In this document: positions 500 through 37,306 of the stretch, piece by piece | Position numbering within the stretch: position 1 is the stretch's first letter | Layout of the letters: each line of letters starts with the position of its first letter | Origin: a virus | Virus record (IMG/VR): IMGVR_UViG_3300006065_000007 | Location: 20,459-84,458 of that record | DNA: 64,000 nt | Direction: 5' to 3' (one strand) | The notes under the pieces: model-generated | The model's input: only the letters and a program-made list of their open reading frames with translations | The model's database searches: none | What the model was told of the DNA's origin: nothing | Translations under genes and position numbers: made by a program

Positions 500-1348
500 T
501 TAGAACGGTAAATCATCATCAGGTTCATCATCAACCTGTGGATCTTCTACTTCCGGAGTGTTTCTATTTGATGTCATTGTAGACTCTTCTTCTTCTTGTG
601 AAGAAGAAACCCATTTTTTATCGGTATCATTCCATTTTGGTTCTTCACCTCTGGCTACGATATCAAGGTAATCTTCACCTTTTCTAGAATAAACATCTGA
701 CCAAACTAAATCGTCATTCACCCATTCATCAACTACACTTTTATCTGTATGTAGTACGCCTGGATCTTCAGGTATAATAGAATTAATTGTAGTATATTCT
801 TTACCATTACCTGACTTAGTTAATGATAAAGTCAAAATTAGATCTCTACCTTTTTCAACATCAGTAATATCTCCTTTATTTCTAAAAATAGGAAATATTT
901 TATCTAAAACACCTTCACTTTTTGTGTTGTGTTTAAATCTCCAGAATTTCGGACCATCTTGTTCATTATCACGATCAATTAGTTTTACAATATAAAACTT
1001 ACGTGAACGATAAGTTTTTGATAATTCTTTATCTTCAGGTTTTCCGGTTAAAACTAATTCATCATAAATTTCGTTTAATGGTGATCTTTTACCATCTTGT
1101 GCCGGGTCATACAGTTTTAACCATTTACCTCCAACTTGGATTTCATGGAATTTAACTTCAACAAATGGTGATGAACCATCTTTAGTGGGAAGAATACGAA
1201 TTCTTCTTTCGCCTTCACGTGTACCTTTAGGTAATATGGTTGTAAAATATTTTTTCAACCTTTCTTCTTGTGAAACTTTGTTAGTGTTGCCGCTTGCGGC
1301 GTTTTTGTTTTTTTCGTACTGTGCAAGTACTGATTCAATTGTATTCAT
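500..1348 (-). CDS. gp32-like single-stranded DNA-binding protein
   Basis: RIRILP...PF.EV.FH...C/YDP-type motifs, KFWRF, GRDL, acidic tail ending DDDLPF. Confidence 0.85.
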   Translation of the reverse strand: MNTIESVLAQYEKNKNAASGNTNKVSQEERLKKYFTTILPKGTREGERRIRILPTKDGSSPFVEVKFHEIQVGGKWLKLYDPAQDGKRSPLNEIYDELVLTGKPEDKELSKTYRSRKFYIVKLIDRDNEQDGPKFWRFKHNTKSEGVLDKIFPIFRNKGDITDVEKGRDLILTLSLTKSGNGKEYTTINSIIPEDPGVLHTDKSVVDEWVNDDLVWSDVYSRKGEDYLDIVARGEEPKWNDTDKKWVSSSQEEEESTMTSNRNTPEVEDPQVDDEPDDDLPF

Positions 1349-1383
1349 ATATTAAAAAATTAATGTTTATAAACAAAATATAC

Positions 1384-1423
1384 AAAAAAAAAGTCAGATA
1401 ACAAAACCTGACTTGTTTTTTTT
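1384..1423. terminator. Bidirectional terminator
   Basis: A run-AAGTCAG...CTGACTT-T run. Confidence 0.6.
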
Positions 1424-1438
1424 ATGAAATAAATGGCA

Positions 1439-1825
1439 TTATTCTAGTGTTAATAAATAAGAAAGTTTATTTATTTCTATTAACATTTCGTCTCTAATAG
1501 CTAATAAATCAACATCTTCTTTTTCTAATTTATTTGATAAATCTATTAAAAAAGTTTGTGTTTCTTTTATAAAAGAACTTAAATTTAAATCAGATATATT
1601 TTTTATTTTTAAATTTTCATCATTTAAACTAAATCTACCATATTTACCCATAGATACTTCTATAAAGTTATCTATTAGGTCATCAAATTTTTCATATACA
1701 TTACCAAATGCTATATGTCTTGAATAACCTTTTGTTTGCCAATGTAAAACTTTTAATTGATTTTGTAATTCAAGAAAAAATTTAACATTAGAACTTAGTT
1801 GGGTTAAACTCTTGGTCATTTTCAT
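1439..1825 (-). CDS. Ferritin/Dps-like four-helix bundle protein (DUF5856-like)
   Basis: LHWQTKGYSRHIAFGNVYEKFDDLIDNFIE and RDEML..INKL.YLLTLE match the Dps-like HW..H..Y..D..D..E pattern. Confidence 0.75.
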   Translation of the reverse strand: MKMTKSLTQLSSNVKFFLELQNQLKVLHWQTKGYSRHIAFGNVYEKFDDLIDNFIEVSMGKYGRFSLNDENLKIKNISDLNLSSFIKETQTFLIDLSNKLEKEDVDLLAIRDEMLIEINKLSYLLTLE

Positions 1826-2444
1826 AAGGATTAAAAGATGTACTTATTTCTCTTTTGGAATAGTTTTCAACATCGTCTTTAGTTAAAACATATTCATTTT
1901 TTCCTGACATTCTCATTTCACCTTGTTTTTGATTAAAAAAATCAGATGGTTTTTGATTAAATGGATATGAATCTAATGATCTCATTTCTAATTTTTCAAC
2001 AGGTGTTTGAGGTTTTATTTGTTGAATTTGTGAACCTAATTGATCTATTTTTTGAATAACATTATCCATTTCACTTAATTTAGATTCTAAATCACCTAAT
2101 TTAGTAAAAATATCATTCATTTTATTAGTTACATCAGGATTTTCAGTTTTTGATGTTTCAAGCTGTTTTTTAATGTTTTTAGTCATGTTAACTAAATCAG
2201 TAATATCAATTTCTTCAGTTGTATCATCTGATGTAGGTTCAGCAATTTCTGGTTCAGCTTGTGGTTCTGTACCCTGTTGTACTGGAACAGGTTGAGCACC
2301 TGGTTCTAATGGTACTTCAGCATCAGGTACAGGTGGTAATGCATTAGGATCAGCAGGTTCCTCTTGTTCTATTATAAATTTATCTAAATAACGATTTATC
2401 GATTTATAACGATTTAATTCTTCTAACAAATTTTTCTTTTCCAT
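1788..2444 (-). CDS. Hypothetical acidic/coiled-coil protein, probable virion head protein
   Basis: 218 aa ORF, N-terminal NLLEELNRYK motif, Pro/Glu-rich linker, coiled coil. Confidence 0.55.
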   Translation of the reverse strand: MEKKNLLEELNRYKSINRYLDKFIIEQEEPADPNALPPVPDAEVPLEPGAQPVPVQQGTEPQAEPEIAEPTSDDTTEEIDITDLVNMTKNIKKQLETSKTENPDVTNKMNDIFTKLGDLESKLSEMDNVIQKIDQLGSQIQQIKPQTPVEKLEMRSLDSYPFNQKPSDFFNQKQGEMRMSGKNEYVLTKDDVENYSKREISTSFNPYENDQEFNPTKF

Positions 2445-2446
2445 TT

Positions 2447-2641
2447 TTATTCGGTTAATAATAATCTACCATCTTCGGTAATATATTTTTTATTTACTCT
2501 TTCAATAATACCATCCTTAGTTGTTATAGTATAACATTCTCCTGTTTTACTATCACAAACTTTTTTTTCGTTATTGTTTTCAGGTTTAACATCGACATCT
2601 TCCCCTAAAAATTGATTTAATTTTACATTTAATGTATACAT
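2447..2641 (-). CDS. Small hypothetical protein (likely start MYTLNVKL at 2641)
   Basis: ORF with CDSKTGECY; GATATTTATA motif 22 nt upstream of this start. Confidence 0.6.
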   Translation of the reverse strand: MYTLNVKLNQFLGEDVDVKPENNNEKKVCDSKTGECYTITTKDGIIERVNKKYITEDGRLLLTE

Positions 2642-2690
2642 AATTTTTTTTGTTTTTATTAATATAAATATCAAGAAATTTAGTAAATAC

Positions 2691-5600
2691 TTAAATACCT
2701 AATCTAAAATAGATAATATCACCATCTCTAATTTCTAATGTTTTCATTATAAACTTAGATAACGCAATACCATATCCTTTTAGATAAGGACCAACACCAA
2801 TTGGTCCACTATAATCTTCGTCTGGTTCAGTAGAATCAAATTCAGTTATAATACTAAATTTCTTTTCATTTAAAGGATTTATAAAATGGGTTGTACTATA
2901 TGTTTCAATTAATGTTTTTATATTATTATCGTTAATTTTAAACTTAGTTACGTAATAAGTGGAATTAATGGGAAAATCATTTTCTAAATTTAATTTTTCA
3001 ATTTCTTTTATTTTACCCCAACTGATTGATTTATTTAAATATTTTGATACTATTCTCATAATATAATCATCAGGTAATACATAAAGTCTACTATTAGTAC
3101 TCATTTCAACCACTTTAGTTTTTAACCATTTTTCACCTTTATAATTTATCATTTCAATATCTGATTCACCATCATAACCATTATATGGAATAAAATAATC
3201 CGTTATACCAATTTCATTAACAGGTCTTTCATCTTCATTTGCAGGTAAAGTTTTATTATATTCACCTGTAGTTCCATCCGGTAATTGTTTATTTCCTGTT
3301 GTATCTTCAATTTTTGAGTTTTCTTCGTGTACTTTTATTTCCGCTCTTTTTAATAATTTATCAAATAAAGAACGATAACTAGCCATGAATGAATCTTCAG
3401 GATTTGGTAAAGATATAACAGGTAATCTTGAACCTTTAAATCTTGTTTCAATTCCAGATGTACTAATATTATGGTCAACTTCAGTTATCCAATATGAACC
3501 TTTAAACATTGGTACATTTTTTAAATAAAAAAACATTGTTGGTTGTATCATTACATTACCCATTGCAGATACACTACATTCGTATGAAACTGAACGATAT
3601 ATATCAAATAACCCAATATCAATTTGTGATGTACTAAATCCTGATTGTTGATTACCTAACCTTTCTAATACATAAAATGATTCACTTGTATTTTTAACAC
3701 TATTTTGATCTAATTCGAACCCCTTAAATATATTTTGGTTTTGATCACCGAAACTAACTTCAAATGCAACTACTTTATTTGATTTTGAAAAATCAGTCTG
3801 TCTAAATACTTCTGGTGCTATAATAACAGGATTATTATTTTGATTACTAATATCATAACTATCATCCTTGAATTTATTATATTTTTTATTTACATCCGTT
3901 AAATCTAAATGTTTTGATGTATGACCGACATATTGTAATACTACTTTTGGTGATGATTCTTGATAATCAACTTCAAGAAAAGTTCCAAATATATTGCTAG
4001 CAACTGTTTTAGATGGTGTTATTTTACTTTTATTATTAAAATTAGTACCATAAAAATTAACATAAGCGGGTAATGTTCTTATATCGAAACCAGTATCTTT
4101 AATTAATAAATTCAATAAACTATATAAATTCATATTTTGTCTATTTTTATCATTACTGATTTCAATTAATTTTTCCATATCCAAATATACCATATCACCA
4201 ATATCTCTATTAGCTTTATCTAAAAATAAAAATTCTTCCATTAATGTTCTTTGTCCTATGGAATTACCAGCAATCCATTTATCGTTAAATGATTTAAATG
4301 TATTATAAATTTCTAACTTTAACGGATCATCATTATACCCATAATTTTTCGTATTAACAGGTATTACTTCATCTAATTTAAGTGTGTTGAACTTAGGTAT
4401 TAAAATATTTAAAAAGTGATTTAAACGTTGTGTTTGTCCTTGTGCTGAAGAAAATCTATCTGATGTTTTAGTAATAATATTATTTCTGAGATATATTATA
4501 AAATTTTCCCTGTTATTACTAAAACCCTCTTTAACATATCCAGCATAAATAAAAATCAATGGTCTAAACAATTTAATGTTTTCTTCTGACATCTGAATAT
4601 TATTTACAATGAAAAAATCTCGATAATATAAATCCAAATCTTCACCTAAATAAAGTTCAATTAGATCTTCGTTCATAATAATATCAAATGGGTTAACATT
4701 AAAATTTTCCACATCAGTATTCGTAAATCCACCTAGAACGTAGTTATCAATTTCCTTTGGATTAGATATGGTTAATTTCATTAAGTTATCATTACTAATA
4801 ATATCGTTTGTAATTTTTTTTAAATTAAATGTTTGGTCATTTTTTATATCTCTTATTACAAAATCTAAATCTGAACCATGTGTTTCTTTTTTATCTGTTG
4901 AAACAATGTCTTTTAATATTCCTTGAAATGTATGATACATTACATTATAAGGTTTATATTCACTTTCTTCTTTTATAACTTCGGTTGCAAAATCCAAAAA
5001 TATATTTTCAAACAAGTTTAATATGTCCGGTTTAAACGTACCTATTAAGTCGATAATTTTTTTATTATTATCATCGATAGAATAAAGATTACCTAAATCT
5101 TTAAAATATTGGTTATATAATGGAAATGTTTCACCACTATATGTTAGTGACTCATTAATATCTTCATCATCAACACCCCATAAAATTCTATAATTATCTT
5201 GTTCTGAATCTTCATAATTAGATAAGTTATTATATTGTACAAAACCGTTACTAGGTAATAATGTATATCTATTATCATCCGTATTAAACTTAGAATTATC
5301 TACATATGTTGTCCACGCAACACCATCTACCATTTCTTTATAAAAAACCTTAGTAACATCGTTAACTATTGAATTATCAAAACTATCTGGCATATTATTT
5401 ATATTAAAATAAGTATAATCGTTGACAATTTGGTGGAAAATAGCTTGATAAAATGGGTTAATACCTATATTTGTTTTATCTGTTCTTTTCGCTGTATATG
5501 AATTTATTAATGTAAATTCAGTATTTCCTAATGAGTTATCAAAAAATACATTACCATTTATTGGACTTGTAACATCTTCTATAATATCTACACCTTCTAA

Positions 5601-8348
5601 AATAAATTTTTTATATCTATGATAAATAGACCCCCACTTTAAAATTAAATGATAAGGTATAAAATGTGTTGCACCAATTTCTCTGAATAGTGATGACATT
5701 AATATCGATTTTCCTTCAAAGTTTAATTTATCGTCTAAATCTTTAAATGGTAAAGAATTTAAAAATAAGTAAGCAGAACCAACATATTTTCCTATTATTA
5801 TTTCTTTATTAAAATCTTTCAATAATTGATTGTGAAAATATGGTGTATTTAAAATGTGTCGTTTTAAACCATTAATATTTAATCTATTGTTAAATAAATT
5901 TTCGGAAAATTCTTCTTTAACCCACATTTTTCCATCTATTGGTGATGTTATAAAACCATCAATAGTATTAACTTTTAAAAAGTTTTGGGTGTTTAAATCG
6001 TTTTTAGTAAAGGTTGTTTGATTTAAATACGTTAAATATGTTGATGATGAAAATGGATAAATTCTACTTCTGTATTCTTCCGCAACATATGTTCTTAGGT
6101 TTTCACTCAATGATATATATGAATTATCATTATTAATAGTGTTATCTGAATTCTTATTATATTCAATAATTTTAAAATCAGTATTTAACGATTCCTCTAT
6201 ATATGGTACTGTAGGTAATTGATCTAAAAAATAGGGATATCTTTCGAATGGTGAAAAACCAGACATATTTTTTAATAATGATGATAAATCTTTAATAGAA
6301 TTTTTTAAAATAGATACTATTTCATAGTCATCCATTATTTGGTTTTTAATATTTTCAAACTCTACTAACGCTAATTCAGTTAATGTTTTAATATTAAATG
6401 AATCTACTGTTGTTATATACTTTGCTCGTTCATAAATTTCATATAAAATAGAAGAAATTGTTTTATTAAAATACGGAACAACATCATTTAAATATGTTAA
6501 AGTACTAATATGTTTTTTACTTGTAATATCACTATCAGATTCAAAAACAAAAGTTACTATATCATTTTCACCTTCTTTATCTGACAAGGGATCTACTCTA
6601 AAAGTACTAACATCTATGTATTCTTCAACAAAACCTACTTCAGGCCATAAAGAAATATTATCAGAATTTAATCTGTTAATCATTTTTAAACTACCTGGAT
6701 AAACCAAAACATTTTGTTTATCTCCAGATACAGGTAATTTTATTTCAGGCCAAGGATAAATCGGATAATCGGTACTTTCATCAGAAAACCCTATAATACG
6801 TTTTCTTCTTTTTTCACCGTTTTGAAATGCATTATAATGTACATCCTTTAATAGTCTAATATATGTGTCTGCATTTGCTAAAATAACACCAACAATGTTT
6901 CTAATTGTTGGTTCAAACCCTATACCAATATCATTGTTTTTAATGATATTATTCATTTCACGTTGAATTTCTTCAACTATTACTTTATTTTGTTCAACAA
7001 AATCTTTTCGAACATCACCTAAACGTTTAAATATCTCATCTATATTAACACCAATTCTACCACCAGGACCATTTACCGTGTAAAAATCTCTTATTTCCTT
7101 AAATTTGTTAAACGATATTGGTTTTGATTGAATTTTTTTATCTGTTTTTTTATCTTTAGACGTACCAAACGTTTGATTACCTTCAAGTTTATTGATATTT
7201 TCTTTAAACCAATATTCAAGTGTTCCATTATTGGTTGCGCCTGTAACTATATTCAAACTTGTTTTATCAGTAATCAATTCATAAAATAATGAAGGCGTAT
7301 TTGTAGGTGATAATGTAAATGTTTCGTTAGGACTTAAATTTCTTTTTCTCCATTCAAGAATTATATTTTCAAATTCACTTAATTGTTTTTCAAATTCCGT
7401 GATTCCAGCTAAAGTTTTATAATCTACAACTTCGTTAAAAATTTTATCTTGTAATATTTTATTTAATCTTTTTGCAATAACAAACAATTCCCTTAATGTT
7501 CTAACAGGGAAATCTTTTGGTAATAAACCTTTTTGTTTATATTCGTTATAAACCGATTTTAAAATAACATAACCTTTACTTGTTTTCTTTAATTTTTTTT
7601 CTCGTTGACCTGTTTTTTCATTTATTATTGAATCTTCGTTCTGTTCAATTTTATATAAATAAGGTGCATTTAAAATTCCATAAAATGGTATGTCAGCCAT
7701 ATAAGCATATGTTGACCCAACAAAAGTGGTATCTATTTCAAAATTACCATTACTTGAATTTAATTTACTTTTAAAACTTGTTAAATGTAGTCTATATTTA
7801 ATTGCTTTACCATAATAACCTTTTACTGTTAAATAAAATATTGGCCAAGGTAAATGAAAAAAAGCGGCGTATGGTGAATTTTCTGGTGATTCAAATAATG
7901 TTTTACCCCTTACATCAACAAATTTAATATTAACTCTAGGAATAAAATTAGTTCCCCTAATCATAATATCAATACTTTCTATACCAAAACTTTGACTTGA
8001 TAATTCTTCTTGTGAAAATATATTATTTTTAGGTTCGTTCTTATTTTTACTTTCTGGAAATGAATTAAAAGTATCAGTCCAAGTAGCATCAAAATCACCA
8101 CCATTATTGTTTCTCATCATGTTAAATACACCTTTAGCAATACTTGTCATTGATGTTTTATCACCATCTGAAATTAATGTAGTTCTAGGAATTAAATCAG
8201 CTTCCAAATTAACATACATAACTAATTCTTCTTGTGATACGTTTCTTTGTTCTACATAACCATCAGAAACAACACTATTTGGATCAATATAAATTAAATT
8301 ATTTTGATCTACTTTTACTAAAATATCATTTGTTTTATTTCTCGCCAT
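2691..8348 (-). CDS. Large baseplate/tail hub-associated structural protein
   Basis: 1885 aa, within the baseplate module; conserved-looking blocks FGIESIDI..VNIKFVDVRG and VAFEVSFGDQNQNIFK..GNVMIQPTMFFYL. Confidence 0.6.
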   Translation of the reverse strand: MARNKTNDILVKVDQNNLIYIDPNSVVSDGYVEQRNVSQEELVMYVNLEADLIPRTTLISDGDKTSMTSIAKGVFNMMRNNNGGDFDATWTDTFNSFPESKNKNEPKNNIFSQEELSSQSFGIESIDIMIRGTNFIPRVNIKFVDVRGKTLFESPENSPYAAFFHLPWPIFYLTVKGYYGKAIKYRLHLTSFKSKLNSSNGNFEIDTTFVGSTYAYMADIPFYGILNAPYLYKIEQNEDSIINEKTGQREKKLKKTSKGYVILKSVYNEYKQKGLLPKDFPVRTLRELFVIAKRLNKILQDKIFNEVVDYKTLAGITEFEKQLSEFENIILEWRKRNLSPNETFTLSPTNTPSLFYELITDKTSLNIVTGATNNGTLEYWFKENINKLEGNQTFGTSKDKKTDKKIQSKPISFNKFKEIRDFYTVNGPGGRIGVNIDEIFKRLGDVRKDFVEQNKVIVEEIQREMNNIIKNNDIGIGFEPTIRNIVGVILANADTYIRLLKDVHYNAFQNGEKRRKRIIGFSDESTDYPIYPWPEIKLPVSGDKQNVLVYPGSLKMINRLNSDNISLWPEVGFVEEYIDVSTFRVDPLSDKEGENDIVTFVFESDSDITSKKHISTLTYLNDVVPYFNKTISSILYEIYERAKYITTVDSFNIKTLTELALVEFENIKNQIMDDYEIVSILKNSIKDLSSLLKNMSGFSPFERYPYFLDQLPTVPYIEESLNTDFKIIEYNKNSDNTINNDNSYISLSENLRTYVAEEYRSRIYPFSSSTYLTYLNQTTFTKNDLNTQNFLKVNTIDGFITSPIDGKMWVKEEFSENLFNNRLNINGLKRHILNTPYFHNQLLKDFNKEIIIGKYVGSAYLFLNSLPFKDLDDKLNFEGKSILMSSLFREIGATHFIPYHLILKWGSIYHRYKKFILEGVDIIEDVTSPINGNVFFDNSLGNTEFTLINSYTAKRTDKTNIGINPFYQAIFHQIVNDYTYFNINNMPDSFDNSIVNDVTKVFYKEMVDGVAWTTYVDNSKFNTDDNRYTLLPSNGFVQYNNLSNYEDSEQDNYRILWGVDDEDINESLTYSGETFPLYNQYFKDLGNLYSIDDNNKKIIDLIGTFKPDILNLFENIFLDFATEVIKEESEYKPYNVMYHTFQGILKDIVSTDKKETHGSDLDFVIRDIKNDQTFNLKKITNDIISNDNLMKLTISNPKEIDNYVLGGFTNTDVENFNVNPFDIIMNEDLIELYLGEDLDLYYRDFFIVNNIQMSEENIKLFRPLIFIYAGYVKEGFSNNRENFIIYLRNNIITKTSDRFSSAQGQTQRLNHFLNILIPKFNTLKLDEVIPVNTKNYGYNDDPLKLEIYNTFKSFNDKWIAGNSIGQRTLMEEFLFLDKANRDIGDMVYLDMEKLIEISNDKNRQNMNLYSLLNLLIKDTGFDIRTLPAYVNFYGTNFNNKSKITPSKTVASNIFGTFLEVDYQESSPKVVLQYVGHTSKHLDLTDVNKKYNKFKDDSYDISNQNNNPVIIAPEVFRQTDFSKSNKVVAFEVSFGDQNQNIFKGFELDQNSVKNTSESFYVLERLGNQQSGFSTSQIDIGLFDIYRSVSYECSVSAMGNVMIQPTMFFYLKNVPMFKGSYWITEVDHNISTSGIETRFKGSRLPVISLPNPEDSFMASYRSLFDKLLKRAEIKVHEENSKIEDTTGNKQLPDGTTGEYNKTLPANEDERPVNEIGITDYFIPYNGYDGESDIEMINYKGEKWLKTKVVEMSTNSRLYVLPDDYIMRIVSKYLNKSISWGKIKEIEKLNLENDFPINSTYYVTKFKINDNNIKTLIETYSTTHFINPLNEKKFSIITEFDSTEPDEDYSGPIGVGPYLKGYGIALSKFIMKTLEIRDGDIIYFRLGI

Positions 8349-31088: not shown

Positions 31089-31128
31089 AAAAAACATCTT
31101 TATATTACGTTATAAAGATGTTTTTTTT
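31087..31128. terminator. Bidirectional terminator between convergent neck and PolB genes
   Basis: A8-CATCTTTATA-ttacgt-TATAAAGATG-T8 perfect stem. Confidence 0.9.
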
Positions 31129-34055
31129 TAATCTTCCATCGCAAATAAATCCACAATTGAAAAATCATTACCATTAGTTTCTATAATTTCTTCATCATCA
31201 TAGTTTTTTACACTATTTTCTTTTAAAGAAACTACATTAGTATTAAATTCTACCCAATACTGATCAACATGCTTTATGGAATCATCCACATACATGTAAA
31301 ATGGATCAACTTGTACTTTATTCCAAAACAAAACCTCACTTTCTGATAGTGTCATCACTTCATTAAAATCATCTTGACCACTTTCTTTTAACGGATAACC
31401 ACTAACTAATTCACATTGATGTTTTGTAAAAAATTGTCTTTCATCTGGGTTTTCTATTATTATATTATCTCTAATTTCTGGATTAAATACAACTAATAAG
31501 GGTTCTATTCGTTTATTAAAATTTGACAAATATTTAGTAACATTATAATCACCTAACATATCAGGATTAGATGTAATTTCAGATTCAGGAATCATATAAC
31601 AATTTATTTCGATAATACTTTCTTTTGGTGGTAATTTACCATGTATTTTTTTATATTCTAATATTTCTTTTCTGTTATAGTTTTCAACATATTTAGTAAC
31701 TTTTTGTACATCACCAGATGTTTTCTTAGTACCATTATTCACATAATAAATTGTTTCCCCTAAAGTTGCATTATAATTATTTAACAATAATAACTCCATG
31801 TGTGCTTGTCTAGCCATCAATGCTCCTGATTTTGTTGTTTTTTTAATATATTTTTTATATTCACCTACACTTTGTTTAACACGTGATTTATTAGCAATTT
31901 TAGATAATGGTATCTCTTTGTTATAAATTTTTTCAACATAAGAATAATATAATTCAACAAATGATAAACCATCACCATCTAATAGATATTTTAAACCTTC
32001 ATCTAAAAATTCTACTACATATTGTTGTAATTTTTTAGATTTAATCGTGTTTCCTGTTAATTTAATTATTTCTTTTCCTTTTTTATTGATTTTAATGATA
32101 TAGTTTTTTCTTGACACATTAATACATGATGGTGCAAAATAATCAATATCCAATCCCATTTCATTTCTCATAAAAATATCATTAAATTCCGCAACATCTG
32201 CATAAACACCATTATAAGTTTTACCATTCTCAACTAACTCATTTTTTCCTTTACCTATATAATGACGGTCATTAATATCATCTGGTGTTGAAAAATTAAT
32301 CCCGTCAGTGTCCATAACGAGAGGTGTATACCCCTTTTTTGAAAAAAACATAATCATCATTCTAAGTAATTGTCTACCTGTACACGTAATCATTTCACCT
32401 TTATCCATATCACCCCAAGGAAATACTAAAGGTGCTGATAATGAACCGAAGTATGCATTAATAAAGATTTTAATAGGTAATTGTTTTCTATCATACATTT
32501 CAGACAATTCAGAATTAATTTCTTTAAATTCTGCAGCTAAATTTTTATATTTTATTCTATAATCTCTAAAATATTTAAGTAAGGATCTCTGAACATTCAT
32601 AACATCACATTCAGGGAAAACATCATAAACTAACTGAATTGATGGATAAAGTGATGAATAGTCAAATTTAACGATATTTTTTGAATACCCCACTTGTAAT
32701 AATCTTGATAATCCACCTGTTATTGGTCGTTTTTCGTTTTTTAATGGAATTGATAAATTATTTTCATATGACCATGCTAACATTATTAATTTCCATAATG
32801 TTGCTGTACCCATTGTAGATACTCTTTCATATGTAGTTGGTACTAATTTAGAAAGAAGAAATGAAGATTGACTAAAGGAATCGTCAACAACCATAGTTTC
32901 AAATAAGTCATCATCTAGATATTGACCAACAATTTCTTTTCCAGACCATACATTATATTTTCCTGGATATCTATCTAAAAGATTTTCGGTTCCAGGTTCA
33001 TCTATTCTTTTAAATTTTCCTGTTTTGGGGTTAATATAATATTTGATAGGGTCTTTATAAATCGAAGAAATAAATGCACCATCAACATAAACACGATTAG
33101 GTTTTTCTTTACCTAAATATTTCGTTATATACTTCAACCCCCATGATTTTATTTCTGAATTAATTGCTTGTGCTCTTCTAACAGCGTGTGAAATATCTAT
33201 TATATTAAAACCCCAAAGAACAAATTGTGTATAAGGCTCAACCTCACTAGCTAATTTTAAAACACCATCTTTTGTTTTAATACCATCCAAAGTATAAAGT
33301 TGTGTATATTTTTTATAGTTAACTTTATTTATTTCTGCTCGTTTTATAATAAACGGAAAGTCAAAAGATGCTGAATTGTAACCACCAATTATTGTTGGGT
33401 TTACTTCTTTTATTATTTCGAAAAATTTTATAATACAATTACCTTCACCACCTTCATCATATGGACTAATTATTTTTTTAAAACCTCTATTGTCTTTAAT
33501 ACCAATAAGAATAATTTCATCTTTTTCTGGGTCTAAACCTGTTGTTTCGATGTCAAATACTAATCTATGTACATCTGAATAATTTTCTAGACCTTTGAAA
33601 AATCTTTTCTTCTTTTGAATTAAAAATTGTTCAACTGGTGTTAATATTGTAAAATATTTTTTATGTTTTTCACCCCAAGGATCTATACCACCTTGTTTAA
33701 AGAAATTCATTAAATGTGAATATCCTTTTAAACTTTTTACTAAAAATCTTTGTCCTTTTTCTAAACGTTCATTATTATGTGTATCTAAATTTTCTATTAA
33801 AATACCAAATTCAGCCATTTTCTTCTTTTGAAGAGACTTGTTATTTTGATAAAAATCAAGACCTGTTAAATCATTAACCCATAAAAAAGGTACTAATTTA
33901 TCTTCTTTTATTATTTTACCACGAACTGGATCTTGTATTATTTTGAAAATTTTATTTGTTGGATAATCGTATTCTATACCGACTATAAATTCTTCAGGAT
34001 CAGCACCATTTAGAAAATTCTCAATAATTTCTTGTGAAATAAACGTATTATTCAT
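31128..34055 (-). CDS. Family B DNA polymerase
   Basis: Exo I FDIETTG, Exo II YNSASFDFPF, DYSSLYPS, KIFINAYFG, MDTDG. Confidence 0.95.
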   Translation of the reverse strand: MNNTFISQEIIENFLNGADPEEFIVGIEYDYPTNKIFKIIQDPVRGKIIKEDKLVPFLWVNDLTGLDFYQNNKSLQKKKMAEFGILIENLDTHNNERLEKGQRFLVKSLKGYSHLMNFFKQGGIDPWGEKHKKYFTILTPVEQFLIQKKKRFFKGLENYSDVHRLVFDIETTGLDPEKDEIILIGIKDNRGFKKIISPYDEGGEGNCIIKFFEIIKEVNPTIIGGYNSASFDFPFIIKRAEINKVNYKKYTQLYTLDGIKTKDGVLKLASEVEPYTQFVLWGFNIIDISHAVRRAQAINSEIKSWGLKYITKYLGKEKPNRVYVDGAFISSIYKDPIKYYINPKTGKFKRIDEPGTENLLDRYPGKYNVWSGKEIVGQYLDDDLFETMVVDDSFSQSSFLLSKLVPTTYERVSTMGTATLWKLIMLAWSYENNLSIPLKNEKRPITGGLSRLLQVGYSKNIVKFDYSSLYPSIQLVYDVFPECDVMNVQRSLLKYFRDYRIKYKNLAAEFKEINSELSEMYDRKQLPIKIFINAYFGSLSAPLVFPWGDMDKGEMITCTGRQLLRMMIMFFSKKGYTPLVMDTDGINFSTPDDINDRHYIGKGKNELVENGKTYNGVYADVAEFNDIFMRNEMGLDIDYFAPSCINVSRKNYIIKINKKGKEIIKLTGNTIKSKKLQQYVVEFLDEGLKYLLDGDGLSFVELYYSYVEKIYNKEIPLSKIANKSRVKQSVGEYKKYIKKTTKSGALMARQAHMELLLLNNYNATLGETIYYVNNGTKKTSGDVQKVTKYVENYNRKEILEYKKIHGKLPPKESIIEINCYMIPESEITSNPDMLGDYNVTKYLSNFNKRIEPLLVVFNPEIRDNIIIENPDERQFFTKHQCELVSGYPLKESGQDDFNEVMTLSESEVLFWNKVQVDPFYMYVDDSIKHVDQYWVEFNTNVVSLKENSVKNYDDEEIIETNGNDFSIVDLFAMED

Positions 34056-34165
34056 ATTTTAAGTATTAAATGTCTTATTATCATATAAAACAACTTGTTT
34101 TATAGTTTGACTTAAATTAAAATATAAATAATTTTTTTTTAAAATAAAAAAATAATAACAATAAA

Positions 34166-34197
34166 TTTGGTGTTTAAAAAAAAATGTAATATATTTG
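34166..34197 (+). promoter_or_regulatory. Bacteroidota-type primary sigma promoter
   Basis: TTTG (34166-69), 20 nt spacer, TATATTTG (34190-97) matches TTTG-N19..21-TAnnTTTG; 15 nt before ATG 34213. Confidence 0.8.
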
Positions 34198-34212
34198 TAG
34201 AAAATTTCAATA

Positions 34213-34461
34213 ATGAAAAAAGAAGAAGTAATTAGATTAGGAAAATTAATGGGTCTTTCTTTTGATGAAAGAACAAACTATAAAGATTCACTTGAAAAGG
34301 GTAGAGTTGTTTTTGATGGTTGTAATGGACAAAGATTTTTAATTGAAAGTACTTGGACAGATGACGAAATATTTGAAAAAATAGGTAAATCATTAATACT
34401 ATTAGGTAAAAGAATGAAAGCTTATGAAATACATAAAATTCTTTCTATTAATAGTGACTAA
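34213..34461 (+). CDS. Hypothetical protein (82 aa)
   Basis: ORF directly downstream of a host-type promoter. Confidence 0.65.
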   Translation: MKKEEVIRLGKLMGLSFDERTNYKDSLEKGRVVFDGCNGQRFLIESTWTDDEIFEKIGKSLILLGKRMKAYEIHKILSINSD

Positions 34462-34473
34462 AAATATAACACC

Positions 34474-34638
34474 ATGAAAATTATATATTCTAAAGAAATA
34501 TTTGAAGGTTTTACTCACAGATTTAAAGTTGAATTTGATAAAAAAACTAAATTAGGAGCAGATAACTTCAAGCTGGCAACCAGCCCACACTTGCGGTTAT
34601 TGTATGTTGGGCTGGCGTTTAATACTTTATCAAAATGA
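34474..34638 (+). pseudogene. Short ORF (54 aa) probably truncated where it runs into a degenerate att-like site
   Basis: MKIIYSKEIFEGFTHRFKVEFDKKTKLGADN, then composition switches to GC-rich att-like sequence. Confidence 0.35.
34561..34612 (-). other. Degenerate attC-like half site (site 0)
   Basis: GATAAC...CCCACACTTGCGGTTATTGTAT-GTTGGGC; GTTGGGC approximates the complement of GCCCATAAC at 34904 with a 2 nt gap. Confidence 0.4.
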
Positions 34639-34871
34639 GTGAATTTAAGCAGTACAAGCGTACACAAATTGCAGAAATGCGACCTGTAACACAACACGAA
34701 GCAGACAACAAGGATGCTATTTTAGACAATGGTATTTCTGTTTCACAAGCGGATTTAGAAAATGGAAGTCCAAAAATTGGTGATATGATTGCCCGAAACC
34801 CTAAAAACCACAAAGACCAATGGTTGGTGGCTAAACAGTATTTCGAGGATAATTTTGAACCGATGCAGTAA
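34635..34871 (+). CDS. Hypothetical protein (78 aa), cassette-borne, GC-richer than neighbours
   Basis: GDMIARNPKNHKDQWLVAKQYFEDNF; followed by hairpin 34878-34907. Confidence 0.75.
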   Translation: MSEFKQYKRTQIAEMRPVTQHEADNKDAILDNGISVSQADLENGSPKIGDMIARNPKNHKDQWLVAKQYFEDNFEPMQ

Positions 34872-34903
34872 AGTTTCGGGTGAGCGTGGGGTTTCTTACG
34901 CTT

Positions 34904-35001
34904 GCCCATAACGGTTGGGTGTATGAGAAGGTTTGCTTAGATAGACTTTCAAATTACCACAACTGTTGATAGCAAACTTTCTTATACACCTTGTTATAAG
35001 C
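34904..35001 (-). other. attC-like site 1
   Basis: ATAAC-GGTT-GGGTGTATGAGAAGGTTTGC...GCAAACTTTCTTATACACCT-T-GTTATAAGC. Confidence 0.8.
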
Positions 35002-35107
35002 TGGTGTGGATTGTTTAGATAAAACTTAATTAATAACGATAAACTCTTTTTCTTTTTTTTGTGGGAAGGGAAATAATAATTATATTTACAAAATAAAAAG
35101 TAAAATT

Positions 35108-35542
35108 ATGAAAAACAAAATACAACAAAAGATATACGCAATTTACCAATCGTTCTTATCCTACGCTTCAAAACTGCGCATATCTTCATTCGTTGGCGGT
35201 CAGTTTAAAAGAAGACAGAACAAATTCAATTTAGACGATTTAGACACGAATGAAAGAAATAAAATTATGGCAACAATTAAAGAAGTGGCATCAGAATTAG
35301 GGGAAAAAATAATAGACTTAGGTACTAAGGTTGTAATTATTGATGTAATTCAATCAGACATAAATAAGTTAGTTGAAACCAAAACAAAAAAGAAATTATC
35401 GGTAGAAACTAAATTAAAGATAGTTGATGAAATTGAGATATATGTGAAATCAAAAAAACAATTAATAACAGAATCTGAAGATTATGATATATTAATTGAC
35501 TTAGTGAATGAATTAAAAAATAGAATCAAAAATGGAAAATAA
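35108..35542 (+). CDS. Hypothetical protein; native cassette start probably 35267 (MATIKEV), with upstream ATG 35108 reading through att site 4
   Basis: AAAATT-ATG context at both 35108 and 35267; first 30 aa are encoded by the hairpin. Confidence 0.6.
   Translation: MKNKIQQKIYAIYQSFLSYASKLRISSFVGGQFKRRQNKFNLDDLDTNERNKIMATIKEVASELGEKIIDLGTKVVIIDVIQSDINKLVETKTKKKLSVETKLKIVDEIEIYVKSKKQLITESEDYDILIDLVNELKNRIKNGK
35117..35200 (+). other. attC-like site 4 (opposite orientation to sites 1 and 2)
   Basis: AAAATACAAC-AA-AAGATATACGCA...TGCGCATATCTT-CATTC-GTTGGCGGT. Confidence 0.75.
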
Positions 35543-36005
35543 TATACAAGAACAAGTTAATTGTTTGTTAGAACGAGTATCTAATTTAGAAATTATTGGA
35601 TTTGAATTTTATCTTCCATTGGGAATTTCTTTATTAGCGTTAGGTATAACAATATACCATTTCATATTAAAAAGACGATATGAAACCTTTGATAGAATTG
35701 AAAATAATATAGATAATGCAAGAGTATATCTTTTCCAAACAGTATTTGAGTTGTCTAAAAATAGAGATATTGATAATGAGATGAAATTAAAAATTATTAA
35801 TACAGCACAAGAACACCTAAATAATAAGTTTGATGATGCTTGTAGAAAATATAATAAATGTAGAATAGACAGAAAGGAATTTAGACATAAATACCATCAA
35901 GCGATTGTTGATATAGTTAACAACAATAAAGATTCGTTTAACTCTAACTTAACTAAACATGGTAACATATTAGAATATTACCAAAAAGAACATCAACAAA
36001 AATAA
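35532..36005 (+). CDS. Membrane-anchored hypothetical protein (DUF4760-like), cassette-borne
   Basis: One TM segment (FYLPLGISLLALGITIYHFIL), then N.FDDACRKY..RID.KEF...Y helical motif. Confidence 0.55.
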   Translation: MENNIQEQVNCLLERVSNLEIIGFEFYLPLGISLLALGITIYHFILKRRYETFDRIENNIDNARVYLFQTVFELSKNRDIDNEMKLKIINTAQEHLNNKFDDACRKYNKCRIDRKEFRHKYHQAIVDIVNNNKDSFNSNLTKHGNILEYYQKEHQQK

Positions 36006-36013
36006 AAAACCGA

Positions 36014-36152
36014 ACCGCCAACATTGTGTATGTGCAAGTGGGGGTTTGGTGGTAAATTGAAAGGATGATGATTTCTATTGACATTTGTAGTTAAGGAAAG
36101 TGAATTACTATTTAATCCCCACCTGACACATACACAAGGAACGTTGTATTTT
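36014..36152 (+). other. attC-like site 3
   Basis: ACCGCCAAC-A-TTGTGTATGTGCAAGTGGGG...CCCCACCTGACACATACACAA-GGAAC-GTTGTATTTT; begins 8 nt after the ORF stop. Confidence 0.8.
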
Positions 36153-36263
36153 ATTATGAAACATTTTTCATAATTTTAAGTATAAATATTAAAGTGGGTG
36201 GGAAGAAAAAAAGAAAAAGATTCATAAACGAAAATGTTAATAAATAACGATAATAGAACACTT

Positions 36264-36362
36264 GCTTATAACGGTTACGTGTATATTTCAGGTTTGCTTG
36301 TACGAACTTTAAATTATACACAAATGCTGATGCAAACTTGAATATACACGTTGTTATGTGTA
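36264..36362 (-). other. attC-like site 2
   Basis: GCTTATAAC-GGTT-ACGTGTATATTTCAGGTTTGC...GCAAACTTGAATATACACGT-T-GTTATGTGTA; one extrahelical T. Confidence 0.8.
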
Positions 36363-36458
36363 TGTGTGGTTAATTAAGGTAGAATATTTAATAAAAGAAC
36401 TGAACAAAAAATTTAAAAGAAAAGAAGGGTAATATTTTTTTATTTGAGAAATTATCAT

Positions 36459-36466
36459 TACCTTTG
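36459..36466 (+). promoter_or_regulatory. Bacteroidota-type -7 element inside cassette Y
   Basis: TACCTTTG matches TAnnTTTG; no canonically spaced -33 TTTG. Confidence 0.45.
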
Positions 36467-36480
36467 TAGAAAACAATTAA

Positions 36481-36597
36481 AAAGTTAAAATAACAAGAGA
36501 AGATTCTAATAATTATGTAATCACAATGGATTTACGATTTGATAGAATAAACTTGGAGATTGATAAGGGATTAATAACCAAATGTGATATAGGATAA
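36481..36597 (+). pseudogene. 5'-truncated peptidase inhibitor I78/potato inhibitor I-like remnant
   Basis: KVKITREDSNNYVITMDLRFDRINLEIDKGLITKCDIG*; TMD.R.DR.N...D.G.I...IG motif; upstream in-frame stop, no N-terminal ATG. Confidence 0.55.
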
Positions 36598-36615
36598 TCA
36601 TAGTTTTTATTTTAT

Positions 36616-36633
36616 TACACATAACACGTTATA
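36616..36633. other. Terminal minimal core site (attI-like or collapsed att)
   Basis: TACACATAAC-AC-GTTAT; TACACATAAC is the exact complement of GTTATGTGTA of site 2. Confidence 0.55.
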
Positions 36634-36655
36634 TATTAATATTAACTAAAGATTA

Positions 36656-36880
36656 ATGAAAAGGATATCAATAACTTACACTATAAAATATGAACTTAGT
36701 TTTTCATCAAACTATGTGTGGTTAAATAATAATCAATGTTATAATTTGAAAACAGGAAGAACAATAAAACAAACGATTGTTGGTGGAAGTATTGGTTATA
36801 TTATAAATGGTAAATTTAAATCATTAACATATCTTAGAAAGTATTTAGTTAAACCGAAAAAATATGTTTGTCCTTTTTAA
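36656..36880 (+). CDS. Hypothetical basic protein (74 aa)
   Basis: YNLKTGRTIKQTIVGGSIGYIINGKFKSL...CPF; possible nucleic-acid binder. Confidence 0.65.
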   Translation: MKRISITYTIKYELSFSSNYVWLNNNQCYNLKTGRTIKQTIVGGSIGYIINGKFKSLTYLRKYLVKPKKYVCPF

Positions 36881-37245
36881 ATTACATTAATGAACATTTT
36901 TTCCTTTATAGGTAATATTAATTTATTTATAATATCCAAATTTGTATCATTAAATTGTATAGTAATAATACCTTCATATCTACCAATCTTAGATGTATCT
37001 TCCTCAGAAAATTGATAAACAATAAAATATTCATCTGTGACATAATTAAATTTTTTTATTCTAGTAGTTAAATTACAAACACCATTTAAAATTTGATATT
37101 CACCTGTTTTAACGTTAAACATGTCTAATGTTATATCAGAATTTTCTAACATACTATTAAAGGATGATTTATCATTTAAACCATCATCAATTAATTTTAA
37201 TTTAAGTATGGGTTGGTTAGACCCTTTTCTAATAAAAAACTCCAT
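36877..37245 (-). CDS. Structural protein, BppU-N-like (likely start MEFFIRK at 37245)
   Basis: FIRKGSNQPILKLKL...YQFSEEDTSKIGRYEG..LILPI. Confidence 0.5.
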   Translation of the reverse strand: MEFFIRKGSNQPILKLKLIDDGLNDKSSFNSMLENSDITLDMFNVKTGEYQILNGVCNLTTRIKKFNYVTDEYFIVYQFSEEDTSKIGRYEGIITIQFNDTNLDIINKLILPIKEKMFINVI

Positions 37246-37264
37246 ATATATAAATATCAAAGAT

Positions 37265-37306
37265 AAAAAAAGAGGAAAACAAGATTTTAAGTTTTCCTCT
37301 TTTTTT
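37265..37306. terminator. Bidirectional terminator
   Basis: A7-GAGGAAAAC...GTTTTCCTC-T7. Confidence 0.85.

Follow-up and report, generated by a model that had tools for sequence, protein, structure and literature searches.

The stretch of DNA analysed here, called the window throughout, is 64,000 nucleotides (nt) long and covers positions 20459–84458 of a 136,948-nt IMG/VR virus record (IMGVR_UViG_3300006065_000007). At issue is a 951-nt gene cassette, W, which lies between the two halves of a hairpin site (the docking hairpin) within a larger cassette, X. The record has a G+C content of about 25% and is estimated by CheckV to be about 44% complete; the window contains a family B DNA polymerase gene (PolB, 31128–34055) and large structural genes. 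Hairpins are numerous in this AT-rich genome, and four long ones within 34.9–36.7 kb are conspicuous when the whole window is scanned for folds. They are built alike: the outer box is NNNNAAC / GTTNNNN, the spacer is asymmetric, with 5 nt in one arm and 1–2 nt in its partner, and inside lie a stem and a variable loop. Such site hairpins measure roughly 85–130 nt, with an inner stem of 11–20 bp in the four of the window. Below, R'' and R' denote the two sides of the outer box, L'' and L' those of the inner stem, and an arrow (↓) the crossover point.

Cassette W and the docking hairpin

W, its open reading frames (ORFs) and the docking hairpin are laid out as follows.

35108–35192, plus strand: left part of the docking hairpin, with the ATG at 35108, outer R'' AAAATACAAC, L'', L', the spacer CATTC and the crossover G at 35192
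35117–35126 and 36143–36152, plus strand: docking outer box, AAAATACAAC and GTTGTATTTT, a perfect 10-bp match
35129–35140 and 35175–35186, plus strand: docking inner stem, L'' AAGATATACGCA and L' TGCGCATATCTT
35187–35191, plus strand: docking spacer CATTC, the spacer on the other arm being AA
36144–36152, plus strand: right part of the docking hairpin, TTGTATTTT, which completes outer R' GTTGTATTTT
35193–36143, plus strand: cassette W, 951 nt, beginning TTGGCGGTCAGTTTAAA (TTGGCGG) and ending ..CACAAGGAACG (GGAACG)
36015–36143, plus strand: W's own site, with R'' CCGCCAAC (36015–36022), a 1-nt spacer, L'' TTGTGTATGTG.., a variable loop, L' ..CACATACACAA, the 5-nt spacer GGAAC and G
35108–35542, plus strand: ORF1, 144 residues, running from the docking ATG across the junction (..ISSF↓VGGQFK..), predicted helical
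35532–36005, plus strand: ORF2, 157 residues, an N-terminal hydrophobic helix followed by a helical domain

Removal of 35193–36143 joins 35117–35192 to 36144–36152 as a single hairpin (−14.0 kcal/mol) with a perfect 10-bp outer box, at the coordinates and with the words given in an earlier sequence-only reading of this DNA, and W, if circularised, would restore a perfect 8-bp box of its own (GTTGGCGG with CCGCCAAC). In the window GTTGGCGG, CCGCCAAC and AAAATACAAC occur once each and GTTGTATTTT twice; among words starting with GTT, 2 of 1368 10-mers and 1 of 1368 8-mers match what is required at the junctions. Because the junction words are close to unique in the window, a chance origin is unlikely.

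The junctions also coincide with the limits of homology. A W homolog in two other contigs (78% identical in protein and 82–83% in DNA) resembles the window over 35191–36146 in L012, the similarity in L011 likewise stops at 36146, and the flanks beyond are unrelated. The left break reads ..CG↓TTGGTGGTCAGTTTAAAG and is preceded by an unrelated, G+C-richer hairpin; the right break reads ..CACAAGGAACG↓TTGG.. and is followed by an unrelated cassette encoding a type II DNA methyltransferase. Rather than running on unbroken across 35192/35193 and 36143/36144, similarity therefore breaks exactly at both. A third contig (L013) has two additional ORFs between the same pair of genes and a similar box. 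The hairpin core of W's site is also found after unrelated genes (L054, L065, L025 and L096), and W's 5′ end is common to many cassettes in metagenomes and in Bacteroidota genomes.

The docking hairpin, for its part, recurs with other cargo. Relatives of it were found with the first 18 bases of W in metagenomes and with the docking stem in viral contigs, and a homologous hairpin stands before G↓TTGGCGGTCAG.. and a different cargo in seven contigs (L166/L167, a viral contig of 178 kb, L096, L124, L046, L044, L114 and L010). The left arm of X, with its TTTG and TAnnTTTG motifs, precedes the hairpin in L166, L044 and L114, and the right arm follows the cargo in L096. Both junctions are available in four cases, with cargos of 951, 767, 1035 and 911 nt, and in 4/4 the flanks refold into one hairpin. 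The outer box of L096 (AAAACACAAC with GTTGTGTTTT) differs from that of the window on both sides with pairing kept, a compensatory change; that of L010 has 13 bp of different sequence and that of L114 has 8 bp. In all four, removing the insert restores a complete site and the insert's own ends close into a box. The proposal of a cassette within a cassette is thus borne out, both by homology that starts and ends exactly at the proposed junctions and by four docked cargos whose flanks refold. The earlier description of W as sitting in an internal att site needs amending in one respect: W does sit there, but the site is not an accidental target, being part of a conserved platform of putative promoter, ATG and hairpin.

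In lake-metagenome contigs (Logan) the docking site and the two ends of W are present at depth while the interior of W is missing, the sequences diverging at 35220. The only joints in contigs of four runs go from about 35209 to 36001, with other cargo in W's place. Two further leads were set aside: L113 was rejected as an instance of the L096 cargo in array context, only a 55-nt leader being shared, and the flanking hairpin cores proved uninformative as an indicator of which box was cut, as the cores beside X differ between copies on both sides.

Two plus-strand ORFs had been ascribed to W. ORF2 is complete within it, whereas ORF1 lies only mostly inside, its ATG being upstream in the docking hairpin; an internal ATG at 35267 would yield 91 residues. 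The R'' box of W's site starts 9 nt after the ORF2 stop, and not 8 nt after it as first stated. For ORF1, Pfam, NCBIfam, PHROGs and PADLOC give nothing usable and no family is assigned, and ORF2 has no family match in Pfam, NCBIfam, PHROG or PADLOC. The label 'DUF4760-like', given to it in the sequence-only reading, lacks a Pfam match and reduces to a lead from language-model feature scores in a protein atlas (Abi-like cluster 0.90, DUF4760 0.89). Homologs of ORF2 occur on short metagenome contigs at 66–91% identity.

In 8/8 docking contexts an in-frame ATG lies 57–93 nt upstream of the junction, where the frame reads GTT GGC GGT CAG, and the frame passes through the junction uninterrupted, reaching 90 to 209 codons into the cargo ORF where the contig allows. 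This frame is kept at each of the docking lengths, 85, 70 and 58 nt, and the stretch from the junction to the first internal methionine is conserved at the protein level between the L096 and L044 cargos. We infer that X would provide a promoter and a start codon for docked cargo; W is probably expressed from the promoter of X, with ORF1 starting at the start codon of X. Host-type cassettes with the TTGGCGGTCAG leader show a related feature in their own arrays: 10 of 19 array loci keep GTT GGC GGT open and in frame with a downstream ATG, where one third would be expected. This gives the impression that many such cassettes are made to allow read-through from a start further upstream.

Cassette X, site polarity and the bacterial arrays

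The surroundings of the docked cassette comprise two further sites and the two arms of X.

~34905–35001, plus strand: site 1, with R'' ..CCCATAAC, the 5-nt spacer GGTTG, a long L stem and R' GTTATAAGC; polarity inverted relative to W's site
34996–35107, plus strand: left arm of X, with promoter-like TTTG (35058–35061) and TATATTTA (35081–35088)
36153–36272, plus strand: right arm of X, with a small hairpin at ~36152–36176; ends GCTTATAAC, complementary to the start of X
~36262–36362, plus strand: site 2, with R' GTTATGTGT, for which ACACATAAC at 36617 is the match; polarity as site 1

Site 1 folds with −18.3 kcal/mol (z −4.3) and site 2 with −18.8 kcal/mol (z −4.2). The relatives of the PolB include a complete phage, G001 (310,542 nt, with terminal repeats), whose arrays have sites closely resembling those of the window, among them near-identical copies of site 1 (some ~90% identical). 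A second array of the phage studied here lies outside the window, at genome 103.3–106.4 kb, and has a site after each small plus-strand ORF.

A finder that demanded self-matching boxes missed sites 1 and 2, and from this followed what we call the neighbour rule, in which the 7 variable bases after GTT of site n are compared with the complement of the next site's box. R' of site 1 and R'' of site 2 (GTTATAAGC and GCTTATAAC, each unique in the window) match at 6/7 variable positions, and the stretch between them is therefore one cassette, X, which contains W; site 2 and its own neighbour match at 7/7. Across the pooled phage arrays the rule gives 5.92/7 (n = 12) versus 3.42 (n = 62; Mann-Whitney p = 1.5e-7), and in a Flavobacterium array 6.33/7 versus 2.33. 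The rule is the signature of integron cassettes, with the hairpins as the cassette boundaries.

The left arm of X is conserved in L166/L167, L044 and L114, and TAnnTTTG lies upstream of the ATG in L124 and L096; these motifs, TTTG and TATATTTA / TAnnTTTG, we take, from what is known of Bacteroidetes promoters, to be promoter-like motifs of the Bacteroidota type. The right arm is about 85% identical to L096, within a match to window 35998–36273. The left arm is moreover an imperfect inverted repeat of the right arm (score 88 versus 46.9 ± 7.7 for shuffles). These terminal inverted repeats (34993–35107 versus 36153–36272) extend the R boxes outwards and would make one long stem in a single-stranded circle; the 170/202-aa 'KKFIATTIREYLNE' cassette (L001 4140–4250 versus 4765–4845) apparently has terminal inverted repeats too.

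On the plus strand, the 5-nt spacer is on the 3′ arm in the docking hairpin (35117–35192) and in W's site (36015–36143), and on the 5′ arm in sites 1 and 2, so that these two face the opposite way, as had been read from the sequence. Polarity was scored with a model, R1, made from 27 bacterial sites in ORF orientation; R1 scores sequence only, because the RNAalifold consensus of the 27 sites gave zero base pairs. It matches W-type sites on the ORF strand (window 36017–36147, plus strand, 58.8 bits; also L012 and L096); phage array sites are matched only on the other strand, in agreement with the opposite orientation first proposed for W. Over 41 phage loci oriented by their recombinase, 43/43 matches are on the opposite strand and all are upstream of the gene, and in 19 phage loci 9937 of 10517 ORF residues (94%) are on the recombinase strand. 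Phage arrays thus have the geometry of a regular integron, but with the genes turned against the sites, whereas in bacterial arrays and in W the ORFs run with site polarity. W and the docking hairpin have host polarity, so the genes of W point the same way as the phage genes.

Host polarity is defined here by the Bacteroidota site family and not by class 1 attC sites. The sites have a 5-nt versus a 1–2-nt spacer and small bulges, with no assignable T-N6-G pattern, and class 1 attC polarity cannot be assigned to them because their asymmetry is of another kind and the IntI module that reads it is missing. The 'classical bacterial cassette layout' ascribed to W holds only relative to this Bacteroidota family.

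W's first 18-mer is present in Bacteroidota genomes. Chromosomal arrays of Shiella, Flavobacterium, Algoriphagus and others contain W's 5′ end and hairpin, and their ORFs have the polarity of those in W. At least 15 cassettes come after an ORF with a Xer/IntI-like C-terminal half in Flavobacterium sp. W21, and the site after each cassette ORF has the short spacer first and the 5-nt spacer beside G↓TT. Shiella aurantiaca has the same layout adjoining its recombinase and, at a second locus beside dapF, a cassette with both W's leader and W's hairpin. Two phage hairpins are 87–89% identical to stretches of bacterial chromosome: the S. aurantiaca chromosome (L138) is 87% identical over 148 nt to window 35998–36145, and a site in the second array of the phage shares 89% identity with 141 nt of a 1.17-Mb contig from a Bacteroidales genome. 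AAC and CGTT do not vary among the 27 aligned bacterial sites, and defence-like genes are among the cargo of these arrays. The shared sites, together with the promoter-like motifs, suggest that the phage would have a Bacteroidota host, and phages and hosts appear, from such shared sequences, to trade genes through one recombination-site system. The view of W as bacterial-type stands for its 5′ end, its 3′ hairpin and its polarity, all found in Bacteroidota chromosomal arrays, but not for its genes, which were not found in the bacterial species genomes searched.

Some host-type arrays hold much larger cargo. One metagenome contig of 13.4 kb (L049) has about 12 kb between two sites, with ORFs of up to 1034 residues, and an ORF in another such array (L136 108–1418) has weak matches to retron-effector and defence ATPases; very large host-type cassettes of this sort fit cassette banks of defence genes.

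The recombinase and the likely arrival of W

About 370 nt downstream of the array in G001, on the ORF strand, lies a gene for a recombinase of 268 residues, with matches to Pfam Phage_integrase and Phage_int_SAM_4 and to NCBIfam XerA (179 bits). On the 'integron integrase' model TIGR02249 it scores 157 bits, in two stretches, and the Flavobacterium enzyme 215 bits, both below the 265-bit cut-off. Compared with VchIntIA (2A3V), the G001 enzyme aligns at 45–180 and 262–308 and has 33 residues where IntI has 81, about 48 fewer; the IntI region so replaced includes alpha-I2 and beta-4,5, through which contact is made with the extrahelical bases of attC, located on the '' arm of the folded bottom strand (PMC3053210). 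Some 40 viral contigs of up to 362 kb encode relatives of the G001 recombinase at 54–100% identity. The recombinase adjoins arrays in G001, Flavobacterium and Shiella, and 21 of the 41 phage recombinase loci carry R1 matches.

Three details of these loci may be recorded here. In G001 (L007 11474–13024) a SIR2-family gene (Pfam 7e-34) directly follows the recombinase gene. The last array junction of G001 before the recombinase (TTGGTTATAAC↓TATATT..) is without a hairpin and may be the equivalent of attI. The array-linked recombinases of the bacteria lie in open frames of 584 residues (L163 7269–9023) and 475 residues (L165 6253–7680); if these frames are real, the enzymes have an N-terminal extension of 200–300 residues that has no family match and that the phage enzyme lacks.

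We propose, with a probability of roughly three in four, that W is a cassette of host polarity that a Xer/IntI-like recombinase, working on folded strands, recombined at G↓TT into the inverted site of the adapter cassette X, and that it is expressed from X. W would then be a discrete mobile cassette of an integron-like system that Bacteroidota have in common with their large phages, and the bases following G↓TT would, as in integrons, be part of the next cassette. Circular W would be recombined with the folded docking hairpin by a Xer/IntI-like tyrosine recombinase of the kind encoded beside the arrays in complete relatives and in two bacterial isolates. The promoter of X would drive transcription of W, ORF1 would be translated from the ATG of X as a fusion spanning the junction, and the cargo, a small helical protein and a membrane-anchored, possibly Abi-like protein, might serve phage competition or exclusion. 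The wider proposition is that one clade of jumbo phages of Bacteroidota has a complete integron-like platform of its own, in which the recombinase is without the IntI domain, the genes run against site polarity, and a mobile adapter cassette captures host-array cassettes in frame and expresses them; on this we find the balance to be even. If it is true, the phage could draw directly on the cassettes banked by the host, defence-type genes among them, and vice versa.

Several observations weigh against an insertion of W at G↓TT. An empty docking junction, looked for as the sequence-only reading had suggested, would read ..CATTCG↓TTGTATTTT, that is ..ATCTTCATTCG↓TTGTATTTT.., and is absent from IMG/VR viral contigs as an exact and as a degenerate pattern. 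Assembled contigs of the four runs have no 35192-to-36144 joint, an excised W circle was not seen in assembled contigs, and 8/8 docking sites found are occupied. The genes of W were found in none of 185,579 bacterial species genomes, and ORF2 has no relative there or in the other viral contigs searched. The 137-kb record of the phage itself, about 44% complete, encodes no tyrosine recombinase (no PF00589 match); the complete relative G001 has the recombinase but no cassette X, and the enzyme is without the IntI domain that reads extrahelical bases. Finally, in L010 the genes of W are 91% identical and yet the 3′ hairpin core differs, and therefore exchange of a kind other than a simple G↓TT crossover also occurs.

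Part of this would be expected if the cargo had instead been swapped by homologous recombination, in the manner of the promoter-plus-stem-loop motifs (PeSLs) for which there is a precedent (PMC2839356, PMC4122927). Here a double crossover would take place in conserved flanks, namely the 17–27-nt 5′ leader TTGGCGGTCAGTTTAAA.. and the common 3′ hairpin, the docking region would never be empty, and there would be no site-specific insertion in the phage. The missing empty docking site and the core exchanged in L010 despite the near-identical genes favour this explanation, as does the finding that unrelated cargos are flanked by one and the same 5′ leader and often by a shared 3′ hairpin core. We nevertheless regard it as unlikely. 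Recombination in the flanks neither needs nor maintains pairing, whereas the split outer box is complementary over 767–1035 nt in four versions, one of them compensatory. Furthermore, the 3′ cores of L114 and L010 are different ones, phage and bacterial arrays alike obey the R'(n)/R''(n+1) rule throughout, and a dedicated recombinase stands beside the arrays in the 21 phage loci mentioned above.

Insertion at G↓TT is to be preferred also over the reverse partition of the locus, in which the mobile unit would be the docking core with the ORFs (~35126–36021), inserted at AA↓C of a resident W-type site with the crossover beside the short spacer. Box complementarity alone fits both partitions, and the window and L010 differ in the downstream core while having the genes and a docking-like sequence upstream of them in common. 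This partition nonetheless seems to us quite improbable: in L011 and L012 W is accompanied by its downstream core but not by the docking core, the latter stays with the arms and putative promoter of X while the cargo changes, and in bacterial arrays the W-type leader always comes after G↓TT, beside the 5-nt spacer. That there is no mobile element at all, the locus consisting of ordinary small phage genes among chance palindromes or transcription terminators, might be entertained in an AT-rich genome with many hairpins but we count it as already refuted, as the box words are near-unique in the window, the boundaries recur exactly in unrelated contexts, terminator-like sites number 0 in 34400–36800, where the hairpins are without T tails, and Rfam gives no family, only sub-threshold miRNA-like hairpin matches.

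Known systems and further observations

Integrons are viewed as bacterial gene-capture devices, and in phages we know of reports only of stray attC clusters and of hitch-hiking host integrons. The arrays described here share with integrons the small genes, the imperfect-palindrome sites with conserved AAC...GTT, the G↓TT crossover, and the complementarity of R' of site n to R'' of cassette n+1. In both systems the array has beside it a tyrosine recombinase of the Xer/IntI clade, and phage recombinase and sites are on opposite strands, facing outwards, as in integrons. They differ in that the enzyme is without the IntI-specific domain and scores under the TIGR02249 cut-off, which places the system outside integrons sensu stricto, and in that the asymmetry of the sites shows as a 5-nt versus a 1–2-nt spacer, with no assignable T-N6-G pattern of extrahelical bases. 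Phage-array ORFs, moreover, run against site polarity, whereas integron cassettes have ORFs that follow it and are read from a platform promoter; such co-orientation is found here in bacterial arrays and W. In addition, a dedicated inverted site inside a cassette takes further cassettes.

Bacteroidota are known to contain integrons (PMC8618304). A survey of phages (Qi et al. 2023, PMC9892861) found attC clusters in 17 phages, with clusters lacking an integrase in virulent phages, including a Polaribacter (Bacteroidota) phage with divergent attC sites, and phage attC sites recombined with attI1 under IntI1; the complete phage integrons reported there are fragments of host integrons in temperate phages. 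In contrast to the present arrays, that survey has no phage-clade recombinase by the arrays, no systematic inversion of ORFs against sites, and no docking or nested cassette. In the ORF-11 platform at attI1 of class 1 integrons (PMC8876359; PMC4670013) a start codon upstream of the recombination site can drive cassette translation, as is proposed here for X. The ATG and promoter motifs are here in a mobile cassette rather than beside the integrase, and their function is putative; furthermore, the frame traverses a whole hairpin site and is open in 8/8 contexts. The PeSLs of T4-type phages (PMC2839356, PMC4122927) resemble the present system in flanking small variable genes and mediating shuffling in plastic regions. 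They are, however, promoter-terminator motifs thought to act through homologous recombination, whereas here the hairpins are free of terminator-like tails, the neighbour rule of integrons holds at the cassette ends and the arrays have a linked recombinase. Within the integron-like subgroup of tyrosine recombinases, conservation of the IntI-specific insertion is incomplete (Smyshlyaev et al. 2021, PMC8138268); no arrays or sites are described for its insertion-less members, whereas here such enzymes stand beside arrays in two bacterial isolates and many phage contigs.

In the literature we found no description of a phage-clade recombinase linked to arrays, of a systematic inversion of genes against sites, or of a docking or nested cassette, and by BLAST the region 34000–37300 has zero matches among 50,697 phage records. 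Should the recombination be real, a single pool of cassettes would serve both phage and host, and the flow of defence and counter-defence genes between them would become directly testable. The system would also offer a natural integron-like recombinase working without the IntI module for extrahelical bases, and in X a natural "adapter" that solves the orientation problem.

Both arrays of this phage terminate in a minimal site, xxxxATAAC-AC-GTTAT, without a hairpin body (window 36616–36690; L001 4835–4905). The ~60 nt that follow it are nearly identical in the two arrays, after which come unrelated small ORFs, and the minimal site could be an attI-like primary site or a shared leader. Within the ORF-less cassette after site 2, the stretch 36375–36445 reaches a summed depth of 1258 to 5625 in lake-metagenome contigs, far exceeding its neighbours, and looks like a widespread repeated element; site 1 is likewise abundant in these contigs.

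Outside the window, at L001 8588–10710 (genome 109.6–111.7 kb), an ORF of 354 residues and one of 313 residues, the latter DNA methyltransferase-like by eye, precede a site of host polarity (R1 56.8 bits, plus strand), after which comes a G+C-rich (0.44) ORF that is transposase-like by eye. No recognisable cassette start goes with the site after this restriction-modification-like gene pair (L001 10579–10710). A further family of repeated hairpins, AAACTTAATTGGCAA ... TTGCCAATTAAGTTT, occurs at genome positions 124650, 131839 and 134749, also outside the window.

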